NCBI GenBank assembly: GCA_016708315.1
Contig: JADJGC010000024.1
Coordinates: 26,638 to 90,637 of the forward strand
Length of the DNA stretch: 64,000 bases
Source: a bacterium
GTDB taxonomy: Bacteria > Zixibacteria > MSB-5A5 > CAIYYT01
Reading direction: 5' to 3'
The notes below the pieces were generated by a model, which was given only the letters and a program-made list of their open reading frames with translations, did no database searches and was not told the origin of the DNA. Of the stretch, positions 18,105 through 52,170 are shown one piece after another (the first letter of the stretch is position 1; each line of letters begins with the position of its first letter). Position numbers and translations under genes: made by a program.

Positions 18105-20483
18105 ATGGCGGGAGAAATGAAGAAGATCGTAATAATCTCTATAACATTATGCCTTTTAATGCTTTGCAGCATTTATGACGGCGAAGGTGCTTTGCGCGAA
18201 AAAGTCGGTTTTGAGATCAATTCGGTCAGCCTCACGACGGACCAGACAGGCACCACGATCGAACTCAATACTGTTGATAATCAACAAGTTACGACGACAG
18301 GCGGGCTCCCCGTTCTGATTCGTCGTTATCTGGTGAAAAATGGGGAATTTGACTCGGTTAAGGCGGTGACTTCACTCAAAGAGACTATTGCTGAGAATCT
18401 CACACTAAAAGTCGAGCCGGATGTGGCGACATTTGCCGGTGATCTTGGGCGTGATAAAACATTCTACGTTAATGAGTTAGAGCGATTTTCCGAAAAATAT
18501 ACTCCGACATCAAGCGCATTCGTGATCGACAATAGCCGCGACGGCGACAAGCAGATTGTCACGATTGGAATCCGGCCTTTGGATTTTGATGCAATGGCGG
18601 GGACTTTGACAGGATACTCGGACATCGCGCTGGAATTCTTCGGCTCAGCAGATTTGAGCATGGAGCAGATCAGCGAATCCGAATCTCAAAACACTCCCCT
18701 GCTCAATCGCTCGTCGGCGGGATTTGCTTCCACTAGTGGAGTAGTTGATTACTTGATAGTCACGCGCGGTGATTTTGTCGAAGCGTTTTCTGAATTGGTG
18801 CAGTGGAAAACGGCAAAGGGATTGAACGTCGAAGTAGCGCTCATCAGTGATATCATTGCCGGAAATTCCGGACTTGATGATGCCGAGAAATTGCGCAATT
18901 ACTTGATCAGCAGATACTCCAGTGGGTTGAAGTACGTGCTTCTGGGCGGCGACGAGACGGTGGTTCCGATTCGTTATGCGTACCACGCAAATAGTTCAAC
19001 ACAGCCGCCGCTTGATCTGATGAATATCTGTGATTTGTATTACGGAGATGTCAACGGCAATTGGGATGCTGATGGCGACGGCGTGTATGGTGAGCCCTCG
19101 CAGGACCAGCCGGATCTCTATGCCGAACTCTTGGTGGGCAGATTGCCGTTCCGCAATGCGACTCAGGTTGAAAGCTATGTAAACAAGTTAATCGCATACG
19201 AGCAGAATCCGGGAGCGGGAGATTACGATTATCTCAACCGGGCACTGTTCATTTCTGCGGATCAGATGCGCGACTATCAGGGAGTTGGACAGCATAGCCT
19301 GCTTGCAGGATCATACCCGAGTCACGTCACCAGCGATATCAGCGATGTTGTAGAAGCTCCGACCGGTGATGCCGCCAATCCGGCGACGCCGCTGGCGCCG
19401 AGCGCGATTCAGACAATGTCTCAGGGCTGGGGAATGATGACGCTTCTGATTCATGGAGTCAGCGACGGATGGGTACTGCGTTCGCACGAGTACAACGAAT
19501 GGCCAAAGCAATTCTTGTTCACCGCAGCGGGCACTGACGGCGATCACGGATTCCTGCCAAATCTCGCTTCCAATGGCAAGCCGGGTGTTATCTATTCGAT
19601 CGGTTGCGACAACGCGGCTTTCGATATGGATGCGCCACCGTTTGGTGTGACGAATCCTTGCGTAGCTGAATCGTTCCTGGCAAAAGCAAACGGCGGTGCG
19701 GTATGTTTTGTCGGATATTCGCGCTGGGGATGGGTAGCGAGTTCGTGGAAGTTGGAGGAGGCTTTCATCGACTACGTCTACAACACGAATAACAACGGCG
19801 CGGAAGCAGTGCGCTATTCCAAGACGTTGTTCCCCTATTATCGCGATCTGTGCTACGGGCTTAACTATTTCGGCGATCCTGAAATGGATATCTGGACCAA
19901 TATCCCTCAGGAACTGCAGATCACGCGCAACAAGATTAAGCAGACCGGCGAGATCGTAATCGCGGTTGAAGTGAGCGACGGTTCGTCAGCGGTTGCTGAT
20001 GCGATGGTAACGATAACGAAGAACGGCGAGATTATCGGCCAGGAACTTAGCGCAAGTGACGGATATGCGAATATCGCGGTTGATTTCACTCTGGCTGATG
20101 AGTTTGTCGTGATTGTTTACAAGGCCGGTTACGCGGTTGAGGCGGCAGTGCTGGTGCCGGAAATCGTGCTTGATGCCGACGATGAAACCGGAAGTACACT
20201 TCCGGAAGTGTTTGCGTTGTACCAAAATTTCCCGAATCCATTCAACCCGGTGACGACGTTGCGGTTTGATGTGCCGACATCGACGCGCGTAGTGGTGGAA
20301 GTCTACAACGTGCTGGGGCAGTTGATCAATGTAATTGCGGACAATTACGTTGGCCCGGGCACGCATGAAGTCGAATGGAGCGGGGTGGACTTTGCAGGAC
20401 GTGCGGTAAGTTCGGGTGTGTATTTTGCGCGAATGAGTTCGCCGGGATTTTCGCACGCGATCAAGATGTCGCTGCTAAAATGA
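18105..20483 (+). CDS. Secreted peptidase C25 (gingipain/PorU-like cysteine peptidase) with type IX secretion C-terminal sorting domain
   Basis: N-terminal signal peptide. C25-like catalytic His (LLIHGVSDGW, about 19450) and Cys (IYSIGCDNAAF, about 19600). Also LLGGDETVVPIRY and YYGDVNGNWDADGDGVYGE. The C-terminal about 90 aa (20200-20480) match the T9SS tail pattern (NFPNPFNPVTTLRF....VYNVLGQ...G.H.V.W.G.D..G..V.SGVYF). Confidence 0.75.
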   Translation: MAGEMKKIVIISITLCLLMLCSIYDGEGALREKVGFEINSVSLTTDQTGTTIELNTVDNQQVTTTGGLPVLIRRYLVKNGEFDSVKAVTSLKETIAENLTLKVEPDVATFAGDLGRDKTFYVNELERFSEKYTPTSSAFVIDNSRDGDKQIVTIGIRPLDFDAMAGTLTGYSDIALEFFGSADLSMEQISESESQNTPLLNRSSAGFASTSGVVDYLIVTRGDFVEAFSELVQWKTAKGLNVEVALISDIIAGNSGLDDAEKLRNYLISRYSSGLKYVLLGGDETVVPIRYAYHANSSTQPPLDLMNICDLYYGDVNGNWDADGDGVYGEPSQDQPDLYAELLVGRLPFRNATQVESYVNKLIAYEQNPGAGDYDYLNRALFISADQMRDYQGVGQHSLLAGSYPSHVTSDISDVVEAPTGDAANPATPLAPSAIQTMSQGWGMMTLLIHGVSDGWVLRSHEYNEWPKQFLFTAAGTDGDHGFLPNLASNGKPGVIYSIGCDNAAFDMDAPPFGVTNPCVAESFLAKANGGAVCFVGYSRWGWVASSWKLEEAFIDYVYNTNNNGAEAVRYSKTLFPYYRDLCYGLNYFGDPEMDIWTNIPQELQITRNKIKQTGEIVIAVEVSDGSSAVADAMVTITKNGEIIGQELSASDGYANIAVDFTLADEFVVIVYKAGYAVEAAVLVPEIVLDADDETGSTLPEVFALYQNFPNPFNPVTTLRFDVPTSTRVVVEVYNVLGQLINVIADNYVGPGTHEVEWSGVDFAGRAVSSGVYFARMSSPGFSHAIKMSLLK

Positions 20484-21338
20484 TTGGCCGGAGAATTTTC
20501 GATAGGCCGTTCGAATCGTTGCTCCAAGACCGAGAATGATTGCAGCCAAGGGCCGCAGGAGTACTTTGGCTCCCAGCAGTTCGTGCTTCGCAAGGTAACG
20601 GTAGAAGCCGCAATGAGAATCCCAAATCAGCCATGTTCCCTCTTGCCGGGTCGAGCCGCCAACTAAGTGGTGCGCTTTCGCTTCCGGTACAAATCTGATC
20701 TCCAGGCCGTCATCCGCAATTCGCTTACAGTAGTCGACATCCGAAAAGAAGATAAAGAACTTCTCGTCCAGCGGACCGAGCCGAGTGATCACATCACGTT
20801 TGAGCATGAGCGCGGAGGCCATCGGTTGTTGGACAACGCCAGCCGTGTTGTGGTCAAAGTAGCGATTGCGCCAATGGCCAAGTGTGACATTGCGTGGAAA
20901 CAGCATTGACAACAGAGCGGCATCGTAGACGAGTGTCGAAAACGTCGGGAAATTGCGGACACTATGCTGAATGCTGCCGTTGTGGTTGAGCAATTGCGGC
21001 GCTGATGCTGCAACGGTCGTACTGGCATCCAGCGCGGCCAGAAGCTTGGCAGTACAGTCGGCAATTAATCGGACATCCGGATTGAGAAGGAATATTACAT
21101 CGCCGGTCGCAGCAGCAATTGCTTGATTGGTTCCTCGCGTGTATCCGGTGTTTTGTTGATTGAGAATGTATCGGACGTTGCGGTTTCCGACGAGCTCGGC
21201 GCAATTTTCAGCGGGGCTGTTGTCGACGATGATGACTTCCCTTTCGAAGTCGCCCTGTTGTGCGTCGATGGAATCGAGCAGTGCGGCGATTGTCGCTTTC
21301 GAGCGATAGGCGACGATGAGATAGGAGACTTTGGTCAT
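20475..21338 (-). CDS. Family 2 glycosyltransferase
   Basis: N-terminus VSYLIVAYRS followed by a DxD-containing GT-A fold (IIVDNSP...LLNPD). Confidence 0.75.
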   Translation of the reverse strand: MTKVSYLIVAYRSKATIAALLDSIDAQQGDFEREVIIVDNSPAENCAELVGNRNVRYILNQQNTGYTRGTNQAIAAATGDVIFLLNPDVRLIADCTAKLLAALDASTTVAASAPQLLNHNGSIQHSVRNFPTFSTLVYDAALLSMLFPRNVTLGHWRNRYFDHNTAGVVQQPMASALMLKRDVITRLGPLDEKFFIFFSDVDYCKRIADDGLEIRFVPEAKAHHLVGGSTRQEGTWLIWDSHCGFYRYLAKHELLGAKVLLRPLAAIILGLGATIRTAYRKFSGQSF

Positions 21339-22576
21339 TCGTGGATTTCTTTCAGGCGATCGGCGAGTCGCGCAAAGGTGGCTGTCCATTCAAAGTCAGC
21401 ATAGTGGCCATTGTTGCGGAGCCCGCGGAATCGATCCGGAGACTCGAACACTGATTTCAGCGCCTCAGTCAGTTGCGAACCGTCGTCGACAATCCAGACA
21501 CCGGGGAATTGGCGCTCTTCGAGAATTTCGCGGGCGGCGTTTCCCTTTGGCAGGACGGCAATCAAGGGCGGCTCGGCACGCAGCAACTCCCAAAGTTTGG
21601 AAGGGACGACGAATGATGTGTCGTGGTCCTGCGTAAGCGCGACAATGTTCACTGCGGTGCGGCGAATTGCGGCGACGGCATCCGGGTGAGGCAAATAGCC
21701 GGTGCTGTGAAATCTGTCTGTCAGACCTGCGGCAGTAAGTGTGTCATCAAGAGTCGGCAGATCGAGATGACCGATGTGACGCAGACTGAAATTTGTCTGC
21801 GATTCGCTGCGAGCAAAGTCGCCGAGCCATTGCGCTACACGATCAAAGCCAATCAGGTAGTTCAGTGTGCCATAGATGCCGATGATGTTTGATTCGAGTG
21901 GACTGGTTGTGGTGAAATCTGCTTCTGAATAACCGTTGGGGAGGAACATAGATTTTGCTGTTGCATCATACTTGTCAGCATAGAAGCGAGTCGTGTTGGG
22001 CGAAGTCGCAGTCACGAGCGCGGCTTTGCCGATGATATGTTCAATCAGATTTTCGGCACGGTTTTGAGACTCGGCGTTGTCGCTTTGAAATGGCAGCGAC
22101 GACCAGATGTCGCGGAAGTCGGCAATCCAGGTTACATTATCAGACTCGGCACATTCCAACCCGACCAAATGCGAAGAGATCGGCGGCGAGGTTGTAATAA
22201 GCAGTGTCCGGGTGTCGGGCTGAATCAGCTTTGCGACAGCTTTGGTGGCGCCGGGAGCGAAGCCGATTTTGGAATCGGGAAACATCGACGAAGCGATGGC
22301 GCTTTTCGTCTTGCCTCCCAGGAGTTTCTTGAGCGAAAACATCGGCATGAAATGCTGGATGCGCGCCGGATCGGTCGAGCCGACGCGGATGACTTGGACG
22401 CGCGGATCGATTTGCGATTCCATGACCTTATCATGTGCGGGATAAGAGATCGGCTTGACGGAGACGACGAAGACTTCGTCACCGCGCGAGGCAAAGAAAT
22501 TCGCCAATGCGACGGGGCGCGCGGTACCCGCCAATCCCAAGGGCGGGAAATAGTAGCTAACGATGAGGACGCGCAT
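21335..22576 (-). CDS. GT-B fold glycosyltransferase (GT4-like)
   Basis: MRVLIVSYYFPPLGLAGTA N-terminus typical of GT4 enzymes. The stop overlaps the downstream GT2 start. Confidence 0.6.
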   Translation of the reverse strand: MRVLIVSYYFPPLGLAGTARPVALANFFASRGDEVFVVSVKPISYPAHDKVMESQIDPRVQVIRVGSTDPARIQHFMPMFSLKKLLGGKTKSAIASSMFPDSKIGFAPGATKAVAKLIQPDTRTLLITTSPPISSHLVGLECAESDNVTWIADFRDIWSSLPFQSDNAESQNRAENLIEHIIGKAALVTATSPNTTRFYADKYDATAKSMFLPNGYSEADFTTTSPLESNIIGIYGTLNYLIGFDRVAQWLGDFARSESQTNFSLRHIGHLDLPTLDDTLTAAGLTDRFHSTGYLPHPDAVAAIRRTAVNIVALTQDHDTSFVVPSKLWELLRAEPPLIAVLPKGNAAREILEERQFPGVWIVDDGSQLTEALKSVFESPDRFRGLRNNGHYADFEWTATFARLADRLKEIHE

Positions 22577-23636
22577 GTTCTACCGCGTAATCGTCGATCA
22601 AACGCTTGAAGGTGTAATCGGCGAGTTTCATTTGCTGTTCGCGAATGCCTTTGGACTCGAGGGCCGGAGCATAGCGAGCGTGGGCTTCGACGCGTGCATC
22701 AAGCGTTGCACCGAGTTTGATTTTTGATGCCAACACGACGGCATCGCTGATGGGAAAGAAGTGGCGGTCATCGTTGAGCCATTCGCGATTGCCGGGAATG
22801 TCGGTGACTATCGGATAGAGTTTCTGCGACATGGCTTCGAGCAGCGAGACCGATGCTGAATCGGATTTCGCGGTCGAGATGTAGATGTCGTGTGAGCGAT
22901 AGAGATTGAAAAGTTGTTCGTCGTTGCAGTAACCGGTGAAGGTGACGATATCGTCGAGCCCCAGTTCGCGCGACAAACTGCGCAGTTGCTGTTCGAGTGA
23001 TCCGCCGCCGGAGATCGTCAATACGAAGTTCAGTCCTTCAGTTTTCAGAATCTGTGCGGCGCGAAGCAACGTTGGAATGTCATACAAAGGTTCGTGCCGA
23101 CGAGTACTAAGGATTCGCAACGGTTTGGAATCAGTCAATTCGCGGGCGAGTCCGCTTTCGTGCCACGATTTTCGCACACCGAAACTGACGACGAGATGTC
23201 GCGGTACGCGATGGATATTGAAGGTTTCAGCGACCATCATCTGCGAATCCATCACGACGAGGTCGGCGCGCTTGAGGACATATTCACTGCGTTTGCGGCG
23301 GAGATATCCGCTTGTGCCGGTCAGCAACAGGTCAGAACCCCAGAGCGTGATCACCAAGGGATGGGCATTGACAGCGGCGGCGGCAAGACCGTAGGTCGGC
23401 AGAAAGTGGGCGTTGATGATGTTGGGCTTGAATTCGGCGATCAGTTTTTCGATTTGATCGGCCAAAGTCAGATAGCGCAGCGGTCCCCGTCTCCAGCGCG
23501 GCACAAGGCGAGTGCCGGTGAAACTATCGGTGAAGTCGCAGGAAGCAGTCATGACTTCCCAGCCCATCTTCTCAAACGAGTTGTGCCACCGCATTAAATG
23601 CGGAGCGATTGCCTCCCCGAGGAAGAGTATTTTCAA
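22557..23636 (-). CDS. GT-B fold glycosyltransferase (GT4/GT1 family)
   Basis: MKILFLGEA N-terminus. C-terminal domain with E..G-type motifs. Its start overlaps the end of the upstream FemAB-like gene and its end overlaps the downstream GT4 start. Confidence 0.65.
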   Translation of the reverse strand: MKILFLGEAIAPHLMRWHNSFEKMGWEVMTASCDFTDSFTGTRLVPRWRRGPLRYLTLADQIEKLIAEFKPNIINAHFLPTYGLAAAAVNAHPLVITLWGSDLLLTGTSGYLRRKRSEYVLKRADLVVMDSQMMVAETFNIHRVPRHLVVSFGVRKSWHESGLARELTDSKPLRILSTRRHEPLYDIPTLLRAAQILKTEGLNFVLTISGGGSLEQQLRSLSRELGLDDIVTFTGYCNDEQLFNLYRSHDIYISTAKSDSASVSLLEAMSQKLYPIVTDIPGNREWLNDDRHFFPISDAVVLASKIKLGATLDARVEAHARYAPALESKGIREQQMKLADYTFKRLIDDYAVEHARPHR

Positions 23637-24567: not shown

Positions 24568-26767
24568 TTATCGCCTGATTACGAGAATTTTGCCGGTATG
24601 ATGAGTGCCGTCTTCGGCGCTGAGTTCCCAGATGTAAACGCCGGAGGCAACGAATTCGCCGGCATGATTGCGGCCATCCCAGCCGGCGCTGACAGTAGTT
24701 TCCCGGACAAGATCTGCCGCAACCGTGTAGATGCGGACATCACCGCGTTGATCAATCTGGAACTGAAGTTGATCGGTGAAAGCCGTGCCGATGCGGAAGG
24801 GATTGGGGTAGGCGAATACTCCGATGTCCCCGCCCTGATTGCCGGGAGTGTAGTCGAGGATGCTCAGTCCGCCATTGGTGAAGATCAGGAGTTTGTTGGA
24901 AGCTTCGTCATAAACCAGCTTTTCGATGTCGTTGGAAACCAAATCGGAATTGACAGTCGTGAAAGCGACCGGATCGGCCCCGTTGGCGGCCAAGCAGAGC
25001 TAATCCTTCGGAAGTGCCAACCCAGATATTGTTGCGCGAATCGGCGACTATTGATGTGATATTGGAGCCGATGCCGGGAGCGATTTCAGTCGGGAAAAAG
25101 AAATCGATACCCTCGTCGAACTTCGCGAGACCTTGATTTGTGCCAACCCACAGCACGTTGTCGCGGTCGTATGCCATTGCGGTTACAATATCGGACGGCA
25201 GGCGACGACTGCGGCTGAAATAGGCGAGTTGATCGTCGGCGTGGTTTTCAGGAGAGATTCCGTAACGCAGGAACGCAACGCCCTGGTCATCGACACCGAC
25301 TGCGGCGGTGCCGTTGCCGGCGGCTACGACCTGATTGTTGCCGCTGACGAATCCATCGGCGGCATCAAAGTGCTCCCATGTCGAATCGCTGGGGTCGAAC
25401 ATCACGAGCGGTCGAACGGGATTTGCCTGAAAAAGCGAGAACCAGATTCGCCCGGACGGGTCCTGATAGACCGAATTGACAACCACAAAAGCGGCATCTT
25501 GCGCAACACCGATTAAGTGAGAGTTACTGTTGTTGAACTGCTGGATAGCGCCATTTGACTTCACACGAAAGACGCCGCGGCCGAAGGTTGGAATCCATAA
25601 GTCACCGTTTGAAGCAACGAGCGCTGAGAGTTTCTCCGACGTGGTCACTGTCGTGTATTCCCAATCGCCATCGACGAATACTGACAGGTCGTCCGTGCGC
25701 GAAACGACAAGCAGACGGCCATCGGAATCGTAGCCGCCTCCGACCAAGGTATTACTGCTTGGGCCGGGAGCAGGCATTTTGACTGCAGAATTCAATGTGA
25801 GAATTTTGTGAACACCATCAGCTACGGTGCCGAAGTACCAGTCGCCGGAGTAAGCAAACGAGTTTAGCCCGGCGTTGAGTTCGGCGGGTAGTTGATAAAT
25901 TATCCACTCAAACGGTGAGATGCGAAATACCTGCCGCCCGCCTTCGGTGACAACAAGTGCATAGAGCGAAGTCGCTGGTTCGTCACCAAGTGAAAGATCG
26001 AGAATTTGCATCGCGGCAAAATTTTCTACGGGAGTGAGTGACGTCTCTCCATCCCAGACGTAGAGACCGCTGTTGGTGCCGACATAGAGCAAACCATTGA
26101 ATGCACCGAAGCAGGTGACCTTGATATCCTCGAAGATCGGAACACCCAGTTCAATCGTCGTCCACTCGGCCGGATCGAGCAGGAATTCGTTGTCGATGTC
26201 GCCAATCGCGACGCCTTCGTTAGTACCCGCGAAAATCTTGCCATCAAAGACGTGGACCGTATTGACAGCAGATTCGGTGAGGAAATTGCCGAGCGTGCGG
26301 TAAGTTTCTTTGACCTCGCCGCCATTGCGGACGCGGTCGTACTTGATGATTCCGACGCTGGATGCAATCCAGAGGAAGTCACCGCTGGTGTCGGCAGAGT
26401 TGAGCGACAGGAGTCCGCCGTCGCGCGAGCGCAATTGCGTTGAATTAAATGACTGCGATGACAGATTCAAGCGACTGAGGATGCCGTCGGCAGAACCGAA
26501 GTATGCCTCGTTGTCGCCGGCAAAAGCAGCAAAGTTAATCTTGATGCTGCCAAGGCCATCACTATTGAGATAGGTCGTTACCTCCCCGTTTGAGGGAGCG
26601 ATGCGAACTACACCGCCGGTTGTTGTTGCCCAGACAAAGCCGCCAAAGGAACTGAGCGAAGTGACTTCGTCCTTGTTGGTGTGATTCTCCCATTGGTAAA
26701 CCTGCGCAAAAACGCACGGGACAGAAAACAGAATCAGTATGAGTGTGGCAATAACAGGTCTAAACAT
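24568..26767 (-). pseudogene. Secreted beta-propeller (two-component-regulator-propeller / Y_Y_Y-like repeats) T9SS cargo protein, split by an apparent +1 frameshift near 24980-25000 into a 626-aa body and a 141-aa T9SS C-terminal-domain ORF
   Basis: Signal peptide MFRPVIATLILILFSVPCVFA. Repeated W/G propeller blades. Downstream ORF 24568..24993 carries the T9SS tail (FAYPNPFRIGTAF...VRIYTVAADLV...GVYIWE). Deleting one base in GGCCGCC (24985-24991, plus strand ggcggcc) restores a continuous ...GLALLGANGADPVAFTTVNSDL... reading. Confidence 0.6.
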
Positions 26768-28271
26768 AGCGCTTTCTTGTAACAGCAAGAATTATACCCC
26801 CGAGAATGGTCATCGCAAGGCAAATCTTTGCAAGGACAGCGCCGTGGCGACGGAATAACGTATCGCCCATCGGCGGGCCGATTTTGCCGGTGAGATAAGT
26901 GCGACCGCCGAGTTGGGTTTTGGCAACGACGCGGCCATAGGGATCGAAGATGCCGCAGATTCCGGTATTCGCGGCGCGGACGATCCAGACGCGATTTTCG
27001 ACGGCGCGAAACACGGGAATATAGAAATGCTGGTAGGGTCCGGCCGTCTCGCCAAACCAATCGTCGTTGGTAATGACGGTGAGAAACTCGGCGCCCTTGT
27101 TGACCATTTCGCGGACAAACTCCGGGTAGACGACCTCGAAGCAGATTAATGTTCCGAACTTGCGGCCATGCGACTCAAAAGTGACGATACTGTCGCCCGG
27201 GTGAAAGTCGGAGATATCGAGCGCGAGGCGCTCTTTGACGAACTCGCGGAACTTGGCGATAGCGGTGATCTTCTCGGCATAAGGCATGTGCTCGCCAAAA
27301 GGGACAAGCTGAAGCTTGTTGTGCGGTGTCGGGAGCATGCCCTTGTCTGGTGAGAAGAAGAACGCTGAGTTATAGTACTTGCGCACACCCTCCGGTGAGC
27401 GCGTCATATAGAGCGCGCCGGTCATGATATCGACGTTTTCGCGACGGGCGATTGATTCGATCCAGGAGATGTAGGGACGCTCAAGATTCAAATACATCGG
27501 CGCTGCGCTTTCGGGCCAAATCAACAATTGCGCGGAATCGGCAGCTTGGGCGCTTAGTTCATCATAAGCGACGAAGTTGTGATCAGCCTTGCCGTTTTGC
27601 CATTTCTCATTGACTGGAATGTTGCCTTGTAATGCCGCCACAGAGAAGTCAGGCTCGAGCGGGTGTATGCGAGTCACGCCCCAGATGTAGGCTCCGCTGT
27701 AAAGCACGATTGCGGTGATAAAGAGAACGCTCGAGAGAATCATCCGTCGAAGGTTGGCATACGCGAAGTAGAGGATCAATCCAATGATGCAGACGAAGAA
27801 AGTCACGACGGCATCGCCATTCAGTTCAGCAAGTTGGATGATCGCAATGTTTGATGCCTGAGTGTAGGAGATGTTCTGCCACGGGAACGAAACCTGCGTC
27901 AGCGAGCGCGAGTATTCCATCGCGACCCACAGTATTGGCAGTGACCAAAGACCGGCACGGCCGTAGCGCTTTGTGGCTTCACCTGCAAGACCGCCAATAA
28001 CGGCGTAATACAGCGAATGGAGCAGGACCATCAGGATGACACCGACGACATTGACATAGACGACCCAATAGAGCGTCAGTACTGCCGTGATGACACCAAA
28101 AACGTAGCCGCTGCGGAAGCCTTCTTTGAATCCGAGTCCGCGAATCGAAGCGGCAAAAATCGGCACAAAAAAGTAAGAGAGAATCCAGAACGGCAATGGC
28201 TCAAATGCTAAACTGAAGAAGAGGGCAGAGATTATAAGAACAACGGTTCTTTGAGGGAGCTTAAATCGCAT
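26760..28271 (-). CDS. lnt: Apolipoprotein N-acyltransferase
   Basis: N-terminal polytopic membrane domain plus a C-terminal CN-hydrolase domain (LLIWPESAAP, C in GTLICFE). Confidence 0.85.
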   Translation of the reverse strand: MRFKLPQRTVVLIISALFFSLAFEPLPFWILSYFFVPIFAASIRGLGFKEGFRSGYVFGVITAVLTLYWVVYVNVVGVILMVLLHSLYYAVIGGLAGEATKRYGRAGLWSLPILWVAMEYSRSLTQVSFPWQNISYTQASNIAIIQLAELNGDAVVTFFVCIIGLILYFAYANLRRMILSSVLFITAIVLYSGAYIWGVTRIHPLEPDFSVAALQGNIPVNEKWQNGKADHNFVAYDELSAQAADSAQLLIWPESAAPMYLNLERPYISWIESIARRENVDIMTGALYMTRSPEGVRKYYNSAFFFSPDKGMLPTPHNKLQLVPFGEHMPYAEKITAIAKFREFVKERLALDISDFHPGDSIVTFESHGRKFGTLICFEVVYPEFVREMVNKGAEFLTVITNDDWFGETAGPYQHFYIPVFRAVENRVWIVRAANTGICGIFDPYGRVVAKTQLGGRTYLTGKIGPPMGDTLFRRHGAVLAKICLAMTILGGIILAVTRKRYV

Positions 28272-45262: not shown

Positions 45263-45627
45263 ATTAAGTAGTACTTCGCAGTACTTCAACAACTCTAAGA
45301 CATTTAATAGAATTTACGGTGTTCGGTGGTATGCAAACAGGCACCAGAGAATCCATGTTGCGCAAGCAAACTCTCAGTTGTGGGTTCGTGTCGTTTGTTC
45401 AACCTCGCCGGTAACTTTTTGAGATTGGAGAATATCGGGAATCTTAGGTAAAGCGCTGCAAGTTCATTTTCATACGCACGTTGCGTCCTCTCATATCCTT
45501 TGCACGTTTTCCCCCGCCGTAACGGCATTCCGCGATAGTTGATCCAATCAGAATTAGAATCGAAATGTGTCACATTGTGAAAGAATATAAGTCCTCTGCA
45601 GAACCTTTAGAAAACATTGGAGTCAAA

Positions 45628-48600
45628 ATGTCTAAACAGCTGACCAAGCTTATGATGCTTGTCATCATCGGAATGTGTTGTTTGACAATCACGCCATCGG
45701 TGTTTGCCGCCGGTGGAAACCCTGATCTTCCTGACTCGGTAATGGCGCTGATGAACAAAACTGCGCTGACCGGGGAACCATCGTTGCAGTACATATTCGA
45801 CAGCCTCGGATATGACATCAACGTTGCCACCGACGAAACCGGTATGGAGACCTTCTGTACAACGCCGGGACAAAATCTGGCGACAATTGTTATTGAAGTC
45901 GCCGGCTCCGCGGCAACTGCTCGCTCTGGTTGGTATGTTGCCAATGACACAACTCCGCTTTATCAGCTGTTTTCCGGCGGTGATGATCCGGGCGACTCGG
46001 TAACCTTCTCTGTTTCCGGAGGTGACTCCATCGGATTCTGGATGAAGCCGAGAATCGCACCAGACACCAACCGCACTTGGTACACGCAGAATTATCTCAA
46101 CTATGACGGATTTAACCACGCCAAGGTATTTCGTACCGGCGTTCCGCATGAATTCATCGTGGCTTTTGAGGACTTGCCGAACGGTGGAGACACGGACTGG
46201 AACGACTTGGTGTTCAAGGTCCGCTTCTCAAATCAGGCGCCGGTGATTACTCTCCCGGCCGATATCAATGTACTCCAATGTTCGTTGGCACAGATTTGTT
46301 TTGCAGTTAACGCTTCCGACCCCGATTGCCAGGGCGACACGATTACCGTCACCAAGCAATCAGGTCCGGGTACTTTCACACAGATCAAGCAGAAGGGTCC
46401 GGTCAGCACCAACTTCTGCTGGACTCCGGCGGCTGCAGGGACTTATCAGTTTGTTTTCAAGGTTAAAGACGAACTGAACGCTACCGATTTTGACACTATC
46501 AATGTAACGGTTACTTTGAATACGGCACCGGTTGCCAACGCAGGACGCGACTCCACCCTGTTCCAGTGCACACCGGCTCCGATTTGCATAACCGCTTCAT
46601 GCACCGATGCAAACAGCAATTTGTCGACCTGTCAATTGGTCTCAGGTCCTGGCACCTACAATGGTTCGACGATCTGTTTCACTCCCGCCTCTTCGGGAAC
46701 TTACACCCTTGTATTGAAAGCTACGGACGCGTGCGGATTGATCGACTATGATACTTCAGTCGTCAATGTCACACTCAATCAGGCTCCGATTGCGAATGCG
46801 GGTAATGACTCGACTCTCTCCCAGTGCACACCGGCACCGATTTGCGTGACTGCATCCTGCAGTGACCCGAACGGTAACCTGTCGACCTGCCAGTTGGTTT
46901 CAGGTCCGGGCACGTACAATGGCTCAGCAATTTGCTTCACACCGGCGGCGTCAGGTTCATACACCTTCGTGTTGAAGGCGACGGATGCTTGCGGATTGAC
47001 AGACTTTGATACTTCCGTTGTCAATGTGACTTTGAATCAGGCGCCAATTGCAAATGCGGGTAATGACTCGACACTCGCGCAGTGTACTCCCGCACCGATT
47101 TGCGTGACTGCATCTTGCAGCGACCCGAGCGGTAACCTCTCGACCTGCCAGTTGGTTTCCGGTCCGGGTACGTACAACGGCTCAGCGATCTGCTTCACTC
47201 CGGCAGCATCAGGTTCATACACCTTCGTGTTGAAGGCGACGGATGCTTGTGGTCTTACGGACTTCGATACTTCAGTAGTCAATGTGACACTCAATCAAGC
47301 ACCAATTGCGAATGCGGGCAACGATTCGACGTTGTTCCAGTGTACAGCGGCGCCGATTTGCGTGACTGCTTCCTGCAGTGACCCGAATGGTAACCTGTCG
47401 ACCTGTCAGCTTGTCTCTGGTCCGGGCACTTACAACGGCTCAGCGATCTGCTTCACACCGGCGGCATCAGGTTCATACACCTTCGTGTTGAAGGCGACGG
47501 ATGCTTGCGGATTGACGGACTTCGATACTTCAGTAGTGAATGTCACTCTTAATCAGGCACCGATTGCTAATGCCGGCATCGATTCGACGTTGTTCCAGTG
47601 TACTGCTGCTCCGATTTGCGTGACTGCATCCTGCAGTGATCCGAACGGTAACCTGTCGACCTGCCAGTTGGTCTCCGGTCCGGGCACCTACAACGGCTCA
47701 GCGATCTGCTTCACACCGGCGGCATCAGGTTCTTACACCTTCGTGTTGAAGGCGACGGACGCTTGCGGATTGACGGATTTCGATACGTCTGTAGTCAATG
47801 TGACTTTGAACCAAGCACCGGTTGCGAATGCGGGTAACGATTCGACACTCGCACAGTGCACTCCGGCACCGATTTGCGTGACTGCTTCCTGCAGTGATCC
47901 GAACGGTAACTTGTCGACCTGTCAGTTGGTCTCTGGTCCGGGCACTTACAACGGCTCAGCGATATGCTTCACACCGGCGGCATCAGGTTCATACACCTTC
48001 GTGTTGAAGGCGACGGATGCTTGCGGATTGACCGACTTCGATACTTCAGTAGTGAATGTCACACTCAATCAGGCGCCCGTTGCAAACGCTGGAAGTGATT
48101 CGACACTGTTCCAGTGCACGGCGGCTCCGATTTGCGTGACTGCGTCCTGCAGTGATCCGAACGGTAACCTGTCGACTTGTCAGCTTGTCTCTGGTCCGGG
48201 TACTTATAATGGCTCAGCGATCTGTTTCACGCCTGCGGCATCAGGTTCATACACCTTCGTGTTGAAGGCGACGGATGCTTGCGGGTTGACGGACTTTGAT
48301 ACTTCAGTAGTCAACGTGACTCTCAACCAGGCACCGGTTGCGAACGCCGGCAACGATTCGACGTTGTTCCAGTGTACACCCGCACCGATTTGCGTGACTG
48401 CATCCTGCAGTGATCCGAACGGTAATCTTTCGACCTGTCAGCTTGTCTCCGGTCCGGGCACCTACAACGGCTCAGCGATTTGCTTCACACCTGCGGCATC
48501 AGGAAGCTACACCTTCGTGTTGAAGGCGACGGATGCTTGCGGTCTTACGGACTTTGACACATCGGTAGTCAATGTCACACTCAATCAAGCACCGGTTGCG

Positions 48601-51600
48601 AATGCCGGCAACGATTCGACATTATTCCAGTGTACACCGGCTCCGATCTGTGTGACTGCATCCTGCAGTGACCCGAACGGCAACCTTTCGACCTGTCAGT
48701 TAGTCTCTGGTCCGGGTACCTACAACGGCTCAGCGATCTGCTTCACTCCGGCAGGTGCTGGTGTCTTCACCTTCGTTCTGAAAGCGACCGACGCTTGCGG
48801 AGCAACAGATTTTGACACTTCAGTAGTGACGGTATCACTTAACCAGCCGCCGGTAGCGAGCATGGGCAATGACTCAACGCTCTTCCAGTGCGGTGCAGCT
48901 CCGATTTGTATTCCGGCTTCGTGCTCCGATCCGAACGGTAACTTGTCGACCTGTCAGCTTGTCTCAGGTCCCGGTTCCTACAACGGCTCTGATGTCTGCT
49001 TCACTCCGGCTGGCGCTGGTGTCTTCACCTTCGTTCTGAAAGCGACCGACGCTTGCGGAGCGACGGACTTTGATACGGCAGTCGTGACGGTAGCACTCAA
49101 TCTTCCGCCGGTAGCCAATGCAGGACGCGATTCGACGCTGTTCCAGTGTGCTCCGGCGCAGATCTGCATCACGGCAGGCTGCAGTGATCCCGATGCCAAT
49201 CTTACCAATTGCGAATTGACTTCCGGTCCGGGAACGCTTAACGGCGGCGGCATCTGCTTCACGCCGGCAGCTTCCGGAATCTATACCTTTATAGTGAAAG
49301 CGACTGATGCTTGCGGTTTGACCGACTTCGATACCTCGGTAGTCAACGTCACGCTGAATCAAGCTCCGGTTGCGACGGTCGGAAACGACTCGACCTTGTT
49401 CCAGTGCACACCGGCTCCGATCTGTATCGCTGCCGCTTGCAGCGATCCGAACGGCAACTTGTCAACTTGTCAGTTAGTCTCAGGTCCGGGCACCTACAAT
49501 GGCTCGACGATCTGCTTCACGCCGGCATCTTCGGGAAGCTATACCTTGGTTCTCAAAGCCACGGATGCTTGCGGATTGACGGACTTCGATACGTCAGTCG
49601 TCAATGTCACACTTAACGTGGCACCGATTGCCAATGCTGGACGCGACTCGACGTTGTTCCAGTGTACACCGGCACCGATTTGCATTGCGGCTTCGTGCAG
49701 TGATGCCAATGCAAACTTGTCGACCTGCAACTTGATCTCCGGACCGGGCACCTACAACGGTTCGCAGATTTGCTTCACACCGGCGGGTGCAGGCACTTTC
49801 ACTTTCGTACTGCAAGCAACCGATGCTTGTGGAGCGACTGATCTTGATACTTCGGTGGTGACGGTGACAACAAACGTTGCGCCGATTGCAAACTGCCACG
49901 GCGATACAACAATTTTTGCGTGCAGCCTTGCGCAGATCTGCATTCCGGGATTCAGCGTAAGTGACGCCAATAACAACATCACAACGACGGTTGTCACGGG
50001 CGGCACACTCAATGCCGGATCAGTCTGCTTGACTCCAGTTGTTGGAGCGAACAATATCAGACTAATCGTTACGGACGCCTGCGGACTGGCGGATACTTGC
50101 CAGACAATCGTGACCGTAGTTCTCAATGCCGCGCCGGTAGCAAATGCCGGAGCTGATCAAAATCTGCTGTGCCAGACACCTGGGCAGTCGATCTGCTGGG
50201 CGGCAAGCTGTACCGATCCGAATAGCAACCTGACAGATTGCTCGCTGGTCTCGGGTCCGGGTACTTACAACGGCACACAGATTTGCTTCACACCAGCGTC
50301 GAGCGGCACCTTCTCATTCGTGCTTAAAGCAACCGATGCCTGCGGAGCTACTGATTTTGATACCGCGGTAGTCACCGTCAGATTGAACAACGCCCCGACG
50401 GCTTCGGTAGATCAGGGTGACACCACGATCTTCTGCAGCGAAACTGGCCCGATGCAGATTTGCGTGCCTTTCAGCTATGCTGACATGAACGGTAATGTGC
50501 AGAGTGTCAGTGTCAATCCGGCGCCGACGACGTTGAACTTCGCCAACGGCTCCGGGCTGTTCTGCTTCACACCCGCGAACGCATTTGATGATATCTATAG
50601 CTACACGGTTACAGTGACCGACAGTTGCGGATTGATTGCTCAATCGACGCACACCCGCTGGGTACGCTTCATCGATTGTGATACGGCGACGTGCTTTATT
50701 GTCAAGACCGAGAAGACGCACAATACCCTTCAGGGTCACTATGAATTCGTTTCAGTCACCATCGAAGGCGCCGGTCAGGAATTTGGCGGCTTTGATTTCT
50801 TGATGAGTTACGACAACTCTGCATTGAACTTCGTCGAAGCGAAGCCCGGTGACATGCTGACAACTTGCGGTTGGGAGTATTTCACCTATCGCTACGGCGC
50901 ACAGGGTAATTGCAACGGTTCGTGCCCGTCAGGATTGGTCAGAATCGTTTCGGTTGCCGACGCCAATAACGGCGCCAACCATCCGAGCTGCTTTGGTCCG
51001 GCGTTGCCGTCACCGCAAGAGTTGTTTGTATTGAAGTTCCTCGTCACCAATGACAGAACGTTCGAATGTCAGTACGTACCGGTCAGCTTCTTCTGGCTCG
51101 ATTGCGGCGACAACGCGATTTCGACTGTCACCGGCGACACGCTGTATCTCGAAAAGCGCATCTTCTCATTCGAAGGCAACGCAGTTTGGGATGAGTTTGA
51201 TGACGCGCTCTTCCCCGAGCACTCACGTCCGTTTGGTGTCGGAGCGTTGGACTTCTGTATGCTTGGCGACAAGTATGAGCCGATTCGCTGTATCGAATTC
51301 TGGATAGGCGGTATTGACATCGTCTGCGCCGATTCAATTGACGCGCCCGGCGACTTGAACCTTAACGGTATCGGATACGAAATCGCCGACGCCGTTATGT
51401 ACACGAACTACTTCCTGTACGGTCTCGCGGCTCTTGATCCGGATCCGATGCGTCGCGAAGCACAGATTGCGGCATCGGATGTCAACCGCGACGGCAGCAG
51501 CCTTTCGGTCGGCGATCTGGTTTACCTGATCCGAGTAGTTGTCGGCGACGCCCTTCCATTCAATAAACTGACGCCGTTTGCCAATAGCGTCATCGTGAAG

Positions 51601-52170
51601 CAGGAAGGCAGTGTCGTTTCGAGTGATGCCAATGTCGAAATCGGCGCCGCGCTGTTGGTATTCAATGTCGGCGAGAGCTATTCAATTAGCAGCCTCACCG
51701 ATATGACAGTGTCCACGAACGAAATGAACGGACAGGTTCGGGTGCTGATCTACGACATCTCGTCCAATTCAATCGCAGCCGGTTCTACGGCGCTGCTCGA
51801 AGTGACCGGAGATGCCGAACTGGTAAGCGCTGATGTTGCCGATTACAATGGCAGCATGATGACAGCACGCCTTGAGAAGAACGTTCTGCCGACAAGCTTC
51901 GCTCTTGGCCAGAACTATCCGAATCCGTTCAATCCTGAGACGGTGATTGAATTCGCCCTGCCGAAATCGGCGAATGTGATGATTACCGTTTACAACACTA
52001 CCGGCCAAAAAGTCGCGACGGTGTTGAACAATGTCATGAGCGCAGGCCGCCATCAAGTGAGATGGGACGGCAAGGACAGCGGCGGCAACACGGTGTCCTC
52101 AGGCGTTTATCTTTACAAGTTCGAGTCCGAGGGATTCAGCGAGACCAGAAAGATGTTGCTGGTCAAGTAG
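45628..52170 (+). CDS. Giant (about 2180-aa) secreted repeat protein, a T9SS cargo. Contains a signal peptide, a DUF4114-like domain, about 17 tandem 80-aa cysteine-containing Ig/HYR-like repeats, a cohesin-like domain, a dockerin-like double Ca-binding segment and a T9SS C-terminal sorting domain.
   Basis: Start MSKQLTKLMMLVIIGMCCLTITPSVFA with GGAG 9 nt upstream. DUF4114-like block (...DTDWNDLVFKV) about 45930-46220. Repeats (consensus APVANAGNDSTLFQCTPAPICVTASCSDPNGNLSTCQLVSGPGTYNGSAICFTPAASGSYTFVLKATDACGLTDFDTSVVNVTLNQ) 46240-50640. Cohesin-like (HYEFVSVTIEGAGQEFGGFDFLMSYDNSALNFVEAKPGDML...) about 50690-51170. Dockerin-like (DLNLNGIGYEIADAVMY... DVNRDGSSLSVGDLVYLIRVVVGD) about 51340-51550. 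T9SS tail (LGQNYPNPFNPETVIEFALP...VYNTTGQKVATV...GVYLYKF) 51900-52167. Confidence 0.8.
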   Translation: MSKQLTKLMMLVIIGMCCLTITPSVFAAGGNPDLPDSVMALMNKTALTGEPSLQYIFDSLGYDINVATDETGMETFCTTPGQNLATIVIEVAGSAATARSGWYVANDTTPLYQLFSGGDDPGDSVTFSVSGGDSIGFWMKPRIAPDTNRTWYTQNYLNYDGFNHAKVFRTGVPHEFIVAFEDLPNGGDTDWNDLVFKVRFSNQAPVITLPADINVLQCSLAQICFAVNASDPDCQGDTITVTKQSGPGTFTQIKQKGPVSTNFCWTPAAAGTYQFVFKVKDELNATDFDTINVTVTLNTAPVANAGRDSTLFQCTPAPICITASCTDANSNLSTCQLVSGPGTYNGSTICFTPASSGTYTLVLKATDACGLIDYDTSVVNVTLNQAPIANAGNDSTLSQCTPAPICVTASCSDPNGNLSTCQLVSGPGTYNGSAICFTPAASGSYTFVLKATDACGLTDFDTSVVNVTLNQAPIANAGNDSTLAQCTPAPICVTASCSDPSGNLSTCQLVSGPGTYNGSAICFTPAASGSYTFVLKATDACGLTDFDTSVVNVTLNQAPIANAGNDSTLFQCTAAPICVTASCSDPNGNLSTCQLVSGPGTYNGSAICFTPAASGSYTFVLKATDACGLTDFDTSVVNVTLNQAPIANAGIDSTLFQCTAAPICVTASCSDPNGNLSTCQLVSGPGTYNGSAICFTPAASGSYTFVLKATDACGLTDFDTSVVNVTLNQAPVANAGNDSTLAQCTPAPICVTASCSDPNGNLSTCQLVSGPGTYNGSAICFTPAASGSYTFVLKATDACGLTDFDTSVVNVTLNQAPVANAGSDSTLFQCTAAPICVTASCSDPNGNLSTCQLVSGPGTYNGSAICFTPAASGSYTFVLKATDACGLTDFDTSVVNVTLNQAPVANAGNDSTLFQCTPAPICVTASCSDPNGNLSTCQLVSGPGTYNGSAICFTPAASGSYTFVLKATDACGLTDFDTSVVNVTLNQAPVANAGNDSTLFQCTPAPICVTASCSDPNGNLSTCQLVSGPGTYNGSAICFTPAGAGVFTFVLKATDACGATDFDTSVVTVSLNQPPVASMGNDSTLFQCGAAPICIPASCSDPNGNLSTCQLVSGPGSYNGSDVCFTPAGAGVFTFVLKATDACGATDFDTAVVTVALNLPPVANAGRDSTLFQCAPAQICITAGCSDPDANLTNCELTSGPGTLNGGGICFTPAASGIYTFIVKATDACGLTDFDTSVVNVTLNQAPVATVGNDSTLFQCTPAPICIAAACSDPNGNLSTCQLVSGPGTYNGSTICFTPASSGSYTLVLKATDACGLTDFDTSVVNVTLNVAPIANAGRDSTLFQCTPAPICIAASCSDANANLSTCNLISGPGTYNGSQICFTPAGAGTFTFVLQATDACGATDLDTSVVTVTTNVAPIANCHGDTTIFACSLAQICIPGFSVSDANNNITTTVVTGGTLNAGSVCLTPVVGANNIRLIVTDACGLADTCQTIVTVVLNAAPVANAGADQNLLCQTPGQSICWAASCTDPNSNLTDCSLVSGPGTYNGTQICFTPASSGTFSFVLKATDACGATDFDTAVVTVRLNNAPTASVDQGDTTIFCSETGPMQICVPFSYADMNGNVQSVSVNPAPTTLNFANGSGLFCFTPANAFDDIYSYTVTVTDSCGLIAQSTHTRWVRFIDCDTATCFIVKTEKTHNTLQGHYEFVSVTIEGAGQEFGGFDFLMSYDNSALNFVEAKPGDMLTTCGWEYFTYRYGAQGNCNGSCPSGLVRIVSVADANNGANHPSCFGPALPSPQELFVLKFLVTNDRTFECQYVPVSFFWLDCGDNAISTVTGDTLYLEKRIFSFEGNAVWDEFDDALFPEHSRPFGVGALDFCMLGDKYEPIRCIEFWIGGIDIVCADSIDAPGDLNLNGIGYEIADAVMYTNYFLYGLAALDPDPMRREAQIAASDVNRDGSSLSVGDLVYLIRVVVGDALPFNKLTPFANSVIVKQEGSVVSSDANVEIGAALLVFNVGESYSISSLTDMTVSTNEMNGQVRVLIYDISSNSIAAGSTALLEVTGDAELVSADVADYNGSMMTARLEKNVLPTSFALGQNYPNPFNPETVIEFALPKSANVMITVYNTTGQKVATVLNNVMSAGRHQVRWDGKDSGGNTVSSGVYLYKFESEGFSETRKMLLVK
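46240..50640 (+). repeat. Coding tandem-repeat array, 240-bp period, about 17 units. Units 3-10 (about 46750-48700) are nearly identical at the nucleotide level.
   Basis: The phase-locked 240-nt recurrence of gtcaatgtgac(a/t)ctcaatcaggc(a/g)cc(g/a)attgc(g/a)aatgc... was read directly. Antisense ORFs of 81-141 aa within it are artefacts of the repeat. Confidence 0.85.

Follow-up and report, generated by a model that had tools for sequence, protein, structure and literature searches.

What is carried at the C terminus of a giant secreted protein of Zixibacteria, and does it serve to join proteins at the cell surface? The question is raised by a 64-kb stretch of contig JADJGC010000024.1 (assembly GCA_016708315.1, positions 26,638 to 90,637; "the window" below means this whole stretch, numbered from its first nucleotide), in which a long open reading frame (ORF) encodes a protein identical to NCBI MBK7093279.1 (2180 amino acids [aa]), which is named only "T9SS type A sorting domain-containing protein" (T9SS, type IX secretion system). 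A sequence-only reading of this DNA had proposed that cohesin-like and dockerin-like segments near the C-terminal tail were the part of the protein most likely to mediate specific protein-protein assembly. A cohesin binds a dockerin with the help of calcium; pairs of this kind serve as standard high-affinity connectors in extracellular protein assemblies and are much used in protein engineering. We found that the window protein carries a genuine but divergent cohesin, followed by a genuine dockerin with two 13-residue putative calcium loops, and that the two belong to a C-terminal cassette of fixed architecture that occurs in several copies per genome on diverse passengers. The cassette probably links Zixibacteria surface proteins into cell-surface complexes, through binding that we infer here. 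The assignment of the two modules holds because fold matches, family-level hidden Markov model (HMM) matches, and Pfam-positive neighbor genes all point to it.

A cohesin and a dockerin in a giant T9SS cargo

The giant protein consists of a visible signal-peptide-like sequence at the N terminus, a DUF4114 domain, ~16 Big_9/PKD-like repeats of 86 aa each, and the C-terminal cassette, which in this protein runs in the order cohesin, 9-residue linker, dockerin, immunoglobulin (Ig)-like sandwich, T9SS tail. The three peptides quoted in the sequence-only reading, one cohesin-like core and two calcium-loop/helix pairs, were all recovered in frame 1 of the + strand within ORF 45565-52170 (at 50737-50859, 51352-51417, and 51478-51549). 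In the following list and below, segment numbering starts at 50650, and the ORF residue number is the segment residue number plus 1695.

45565-52170, +, giant T9SS cargo gene, a 2201-codon ORF (probable start at 45628, giving 2180 aa)
50692-51321, +, divergent cohesin module (ORF residues 1710-1919, segment 15-224)
51322-51348, +, conserved cohesin-to-dockerin linker VCADSIDAP, 9 residues (segment 225-233)
51349-51549, +, dockerin module (segment 234-300)
51352-51390, +, dockerin putative calcium loop 1, 13 residues
51382-51432, +, dockerin helix 1
51445-51474, +, dockerin linker helix
51478-51516, +, dockerin putative calcium loop 2, 13 residues
51508-51543, +, dockerin helix 3
51586-51876, +, Ig-like beta-sandwich, or X domain (segment 313-409; strands modeled at pLDDT above 90)
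51916-52167, +, T9SS type A C-terminal sorting domain (segment 423-506)

We modeled the last 506 residues with AlphaFold2, using 92 homologues (mean predicted local distance difference test score [pLDDT], 91.4; predicted template modeling score [pTM], 0.62 for the four domains). The first module was predicted to adopt the nine-stranded beta-sandwich of a cohesin, of which the quoted core makes up strands 1 to 3, and a Foldseek search of the model against the PDB returned cohesins at an E value of about 1e-7 with a probability of 1.0, bearing out the cohesin-like reading. The best matches were 3ul4_A and 1g1k_A, each with a target-normalized template modeling (TM) score of 0.81; the top 50 were mostly cohesins, and the non-cohesin matches had target-normalized TM scores of no more than 0.28. 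With the Pfam Cohesin model (PF00963), the window protein scored 19.8 to 20.2 bits (E 7e-4 to 1e-3), aligning at model positions 18-56 only, and 40 of 87 relatives matched the same model (E < 0.1; best E 2.6e-5); some relatives exceed its cut-off, among them P0146 with 24.7 bits. A single-sequence phmmer search of PDB sequences with the 407-aa C-terminal segment yielded no meaningful match (intermedilysin came first, E 0.6); the family profile, searched against the same sequences, found cohesins and dockerins at the matching positions, with weak E values of about 0.1.

Insertions make the cohesin ~70 residues longer than the Pfam model, which has 139 positions. Its conserved loops read WEYFTYR, GNCxxxCPSG, NNGPNHP, and DCGDN, and a variable insertion precedes the last strand. 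Nowhere in the cassette is conservation higher than in these cohesin insertions (window 50875-51120) and in strand 4, with E76, R81, D154, and N155 invariant. As judged from sequence conservation, the insertions hint at an extra metal or ligand site that is absent from canonical cohesins.

The second module was predicted by a dockerin-only AlphaFold2 model (pLDDT 84) to have the three-helix dockerin fold, with helices at its residues 25-41, 46-55, and 67-78. All eight PDB structures that Foldseek matched to the modeled helical part at E ≤ 0.5 were dockerins (TM 0.60 to 0.77; root mean square deviation, 2.1 to 3.3 Å), the E values being weak (0.1 to 0.5) because the domain is short. The structural search that the sequence-only reading had called for thus returned cohesins for one segment and dockerins for the other. 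Among the ~128,000 six-frame codons of the window there are just two instances of the pattern D.N.[DN]G.{6}D, each of them in the dockerin, which argues that it is not a chance match. The two loops start 42 residues apart and the quoted cohesin core ends 164 residues ahead of the dockerin, so that a spacing of ~60 residues, as had been read, fits neither; unlike that core, the full cohesin domain adjoins the dockerin through the 9-residue linker. Both dockerin repeats keep D1, N3, N/D5, and G6, and the final Asp stands at position 13, whereas the canonical acidic position is 12. Alignment with the dockerin 3ul4_B requires a one-residue gap in each loop, and the linker between the repeats is 8 residues longer. 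The Pfam Dockerin_1 model (PF00404) scored 12.5 bits on the window protein (E 0.17) and matched 20 of the 87 relatives (E < 0.1; best E 6.3e-5). Exposed residues of the dockerin helices are as conserved as its core, as would be expected of a binding surface.

The dockerin had been placed immediately upstream of the T9SS tail. It does lie upstream, but a beta-sandwich of ~100 residues, the X domain, intervenes; this domain is conserved family-wide, has no Pfam match, and was found with a family HMM in 93 of 93 complete cassettes. The sorting domain that follows scored 38 to 39 bits with TIGR04183 (cut-off 23), 28 to 31 bits with PF18962 (cut-off 27), and 41 to 59 bits with FlgD_ig. By these curated cut-offs the giant protein is predicted to be a T9SS type A cargo, in agreement with the sequence-only reading. 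Type A sorting domains direct export by the T9SS and are then swapped for an outer-membrane lipid anchor.

A predicted disulfide between the linker and the cohesin

We examined cysteine covariation and mean-field direct-coupling analysis (DCA) in 371 non-identical cohesin-dockerin units. Across these units, cysteines were gained or lost pairwise, as follows.

C140-C226: both Cys in 314 units, neither in 55, mixed in 2
C73-C114: both Cys in 306 units, neither in 47, mixed in 18
C88-C92: both Cys in 341 units, neither in 18, mixed in 12
C15-C214: both Cys in 76 units, neither in 261, mixed in 34
C152-C203: near-invariant, pairing assigned by elimination

The sequences therefore predict four cohesin disulfides (C15-C214, C73-C114, C88-C92, and C140-C226), with C152-C203 as a candidate fifth by elimination. 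The C140-C226 pair was also the strongest DCA coupling, and it is mostly gone from cohesins that have no dockerin after them. Since C226 belongs to the linker, this bond would apparently tie the beginning of the dockerin to the body of the cohesin. Between the two domains the best DCA pair, which joins the start of cohesin strand 1 to the dockerin linker helix, ranked 24 of 39,903 (z 8.5), and weaker pairs involved dockerin helices 1 and 3; the cysteine pairs were clear, whereas this inter-domain signal was too weak to separate intramolecular from intermolecular binding.

A large Zixibacteria family with diverse passengers

At the level of 90%-identity clusters we found at least 670 relatives of the 407-aa C-terminal segment, the named ones mostly from Candidatus Zixiibacteriota, and no precomputed cohesin or dockerin annotation was found among them. 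When the 291-aa cohesin-dockerin unit was the query, the number of 50%-identity clusters matched was 1,638 at E ≤ 1e-3, 1,286 (mostly from Zixibacteria) at E ≤ 1e-10, and 780 at E ≤ 1e-30. At least 404 cassette loci were confirmed when one genome per species was scanned, and from these we took 80 loci of 54 assemblies for analysis; the order cohesin, dockerin, sandwich, tail was seen in 93 ORFs of these 80 loci. One metagenome-assembled genome (MAG) has at least seven dockerin-bearing cassette genes. At loci L019, L023, L013, and L016, all in Zixibacteria MAGs, cassette genes stand in tandem, three or four in a row; many of the assemblies with tandem arrays are titled "uncultured Ignavibacteria," which may be a taxonomic mislabel.

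The giant protein of the window has two cluster mates of unequal length at 90% identity. The shorter (1516 aa) appears to be 5'-truncated, and the longer (2360 aa) has a like C-terminal cassette (87% identity) and a different N terminus; these differences suggest cassette exchange or a collapse of repeats in the assemblies.

To describe the passengers, we scanned 42 representative cassette proteins and 10 locus proteins. They carry Ig-like, Big_9, HYR, VWA, and lectin-like domains, and the enzymes among them are Peptidase_S8, M14, C25, C39_2, and C70 domains and a metallophosphoesterase. Neither a glycoside hydrolase nor any other carbohydrate-active enzyme domain was among the families listed for the scanned passengers (the first 25 of 43). 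Enzymes had also been sought in relatives of ~870 aa, and the first ten of these to be scanned had Ig-like domains only; it was the wider passenger sample that revealed the proteases.

Relatives in which the two modules occur separately or in differing numbers

Cohesins and dockerins occur one to one in 216 of 261 sampled relatives. Some relatives are of scaffoldin-like build: P0134 has four cohesins and then a dockerin with its X domain, P0122 has four cohesins, a dockerin-X, a cohesin-dockerin-X, a further dockerin-X, and a sorting domain, and P0124 has three cohesin-dockerin-X units ahead of its sorting domain. P0123, also with several units, is encoded on a 2.6-Mb Zixibacteria contig. Twenty-five cohesins have no dockerin in cis and are followed by another cohesin instead, most of them lacking the C140/C226 pair, and six dockerins have neither a preceding cohesin nor the CADSID linker. 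Scaffoldin-like proteins with several cohesins were found among relatives elsewhere and not within the 64-kb window. Such unequal numbers require partners on other molecules; they are the main argument that binding is intermolecular, and they lend support to a function in protein-protein assembly.

In related genomes, genes adjacent to the cassette encode proteins in which a cohesin recognized by Pfam (28 to 45 bits) is followed by the dockerin of this family, the sandwich, and the tail. These canonical neighbor cohesins are matched in register by the profile of the insert-rich cohesin, and one neighbor protein, found with the family dockerin HMM, scored 36.6 bits with Dockerin_1.

A second type of cassette, with a canonical, Pfam-positive cohesin and with DLIRLIQ in the second dockerin helix where the insert-rich type has DLVYLIR, stands beside the insert-rich type at L029:7966-10431, L007:7615-10371, L065:8012-10471 (with two cohesins), L006:8841-10523, and L049:7954-8829. 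As far as these sequences indicate, it may represent a second specificity class.

Binding between molecules or within one

We somewhat favor the view that the cassette forms a non-cellulosomal, T9SS-anchored cohesin-dockerin assembly that links cargo between molecules. After export, the sorting domain would be exchanged for the outer-membrane lipid anchor, leaving the cohesin-dockerin pair near the cell surface and the 16-repeat stalk pointing outwards. The dockerin of one molecule would then bind, with calcium, the cohesin of another cassette protein or of a multi-cohesin relative, while its own cohesin would accept another dockerin. Cargo proteins would in this way serve as monovalent adaptors, joining adhesins and proteases into a surface network. 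We infer each of the three steps on which this depends, namely, that calcium is bound, that cohesin binds dockerin, and that it does so between molecules.

Several observations weigh against this model. The window protein falls below the gathering cut-offs of both Pfam Cohesin (24.1 bits) and Dockerin_1 (22.9 bits). The 13-residue loops shift the last acidic ligand by one, so that calcium coordination is assumed. The dockerin is very conserved among paralogues, which leaves little sign of specificity classes in the cellulosome style. Neither tblastn nor the family HMMs nor a motif scan found a second cohesin or dockerin gene in the 64-kb window, and the partner modules that the sequence-only reading had suggested seeking in the genome did not turn up there. 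Finally, the short stapled linker, the pTM of 0.62, and the weak cohesin-dockerin covariation fit a rigid pair within one molecule, in which the binding faces may or may not stay free.

These last features would be explained if the dockerin sat permanently on the cohesin of its own polypeptide, as a clasp, making a rigid pedestal above the anchor that serves as a spacer or folding unit and needs no partner. The conserved 9-residue linker with its apparent disulfide, the prevalence of one-to-one proteins, a modeled pTM that lies above our own estimate for four freely jointed domains, and the inter-domain couplings all speak for such an arrangement. We nevertheless think it unlikely, since relatives with four cohesins to one dockerin, and dockerins with no cohesin, cannot be satisfied intramolecularly; the strongest inter-domain coupling, moreover, joins the dockerin linker helix to the start of strand 1, which is not the usual binding face. 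Alternatively, the folds might have been repurposed, with the cohesin binding a glycan, lipopolysaccharide, or a substrate through its conserved insertion loops and the dockerin reduced to a calcium-stabilized spacer. The top-conserved cohesin residues do lie in the insertions and strand 4 rather than in the classical binding sheet, E76, R81, D154, and N155, all polar and invariant, point to a defined site, and the calcium loops are non-canonical. Cohesin and dockerin, however, are kept together, duplicated, and shuffled as in scaffoldins, neighboring paralogues have canonical Pfam cohesins in the same position, and the exposed dockerin helix residues are conserved as in a binding surface; we regard a repurposing as improbable. 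To see in the locus nothing but generic EF-hand loops, or chance matches in an ordinary beta-rich adhesin, seems to us scarcely credible. Such a reading could draw on the two Pfam scores below cut-off and on the single-sequence PDB search without a significant match, yet no EF-hand family matched at E ≤ 1, loop 1 is preceded by coil and so lacks an entering helix, and the loops have 13 residues, not 12. An EF-hand-only interpretation, which the sequence-only reading had itself raised against its proposal, fails on the first two of these points. The structural matches, in addition, were specific to cohesins and dockerins, and the motif pair, found nowhere else in the window, is conserved across more than 1,000 clusters. 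For the window protein taken alone, the HMM support that had been looked for stayed below the Pfam cut-offs, but the family-level Pfam matches and the Pfam-positive neighbor genes supply it, and together with the fold matches they contradict the EF-hand or chance reading.

Within a model of binding between molecules, an open-ended form can be imagined. Nearly every cargo has one socket and one plug beside its anchor, and the cohesin-dockerin didomain might for this reason be a self-complementary polymerization unit, building a calcium-dependent lattice or daisy chain out of adhesins and proteases that are T9SS-anchored to the outer membrane. We put this forward tentatively, as a possibility of rather low probability; if it is true, it would amount to a novel type of surface coat, unlike the scaffoldin-centered logic of the cellulosome, in which the multi-cohesin relatives would be branching nodes. 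If binding between molecules is true in any form, then one connected structure would take in most of the large surface proteins of Zixibacteria, along with several of their secreted proteases, and adhesion and extracellular proteolysis in these bacteria would need reinterpretation. In the databases searched, this family of more than 1,000 clusters is named only as "hypothetical" or "T9SS sorting domain" protein, and our literature search found no paper joining Zixibacteria with cohesin, dockerin, or type IX secretion. With this family, the cohesin-dockerin system would reach a diderm phylum that has been little studied and would be tied to T9SS anchoring; the family would also provide a compact, disulfide-stabilized didomain with unusual 13-residue calcium loops.

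Comparison with known cohesin-dockerin systems

The role of adaptor scaffoldins, and the anchoring of other scaffoldins through S-layer homology (SLH) modules or sortase, have been described (PMC12484212). The Ruminococcus flavefaciens adaptors ScaC and ScaH resemble the Zixibacteria cassette proteins in having one cohesin and one dockerin per polypeptide, so that each can both dock and accept, and R. flavefaciens cohesins (5lxv and 8ajy) were among the structural matches of the window cohesin. In Zixibacteria, however, the pair stands at the C terminus of a large adhesin-like or protease cargo in a diderm host, the linker is a stapled stretch of 9 residues where theirs is flexible, an Ig-like domain and a T9SS tail follow, and no carbohydrate-active enzyme domain was met among the passengers scanned, the kind of protein on which the dockerins of cellulosomes are carried. 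With the anchoring scaffoldins (OlpA, OlpC, and SdbA of Clostridium thermocellum, through SLH; ScaE of R. flavefaciens, through sortase) the window protein shares a cohesin held at the surface by a dedicated module, and the cohesins of OlpA and OlpC (3ul4_A and 4dh2) were among its best structural matches; it differs in using a T9SS sorting domain in place of SLH or sortase and in having a dockerin of its own.

For Cloacimonadota (Candidatus Stygibacter), a cellulosome-like system has been proposed in which S8 and C25 peptidases and other enzymes are tagged with dockerins, while a conserved C-terminal domain anchors a cohesin scaffoldin (PMC8542988). The likeness is considerable: the same FCB superphylum, dockerins on peptidases, and anchoring by a C-terminal domain. 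The Cloacimonadota cohesins and dockerins, in contrast, are on separate proteins and are recognized by InterPro, whereas in Zixibacteria both sit in a fixed cassette on nearly every member.

Cohesin and dockerin modules reportedly occur outside cellulose degradation as well, sometimes on the same protein (a finding ascribed to Peer et al., 2009). Among such non-cellulosomal pairs are that of Archaeoglobus fulgidus, whose use has been mentioned (PMC12484212), and NagJ/NagH of Clostridium perfringens; the NagJ cohesin was among the weak sequence and structure matches of the window protein. What they have in common with the Zixibacteria family is a cohesin and dockerin away from cellulose degradation. 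The Zixibacteria family differs in its size (>1,000 clusters), its fixed order of cohesin, dockerin, Ig-like domain, and C-terminal sorting domain, its coupling to the T9SS, its 13-residue putative calcium loops, and its four or five predicted cohesin disulfides.

Other features of the window

The passenger region of the giant protein (45565-50650, +) has 15 to 16 repeats behind DUF4114 that are nearly identical and have conserved cysteines. The genes flanking the giant gene are housekeeping genes (valyl-tRNA synthetase, an aminotransferase, and the shikimate pathway), and the operon therefore gives no clue. One extra 12-residue motif, at 32344, lies inside the PriA helicase and was set aside as a chance match.

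Two further loci of the window concern the T9SS, and their presence counts in favor of the T9SS-anchored assembly. A PorZ-like component at 24571-26788 on the - strand is split across two overlapping ORFs, probably by a frameshift, a sequencing error, or decay to a pseudogene.

24908-26788, -, PorZ-like ORF (NCBIfam T9SS_PorZ positions 3-556)
24571-24999, -, PorZ-like ORF (T9SS_PorZ positions 623-757), with a sorting domain at its end

At 18105-20483 on the + strand lies a gene for a Peptidase_C25 protein with a T9SS sorting domain, which matched the PorU sortase model weakly (86 bits; cut-off 420) and could be either a PorU-like sortase or a gingipain-like cargo. Glycosyltransferase genes (20475-23636, -) separate it from the PorZ-like gene.

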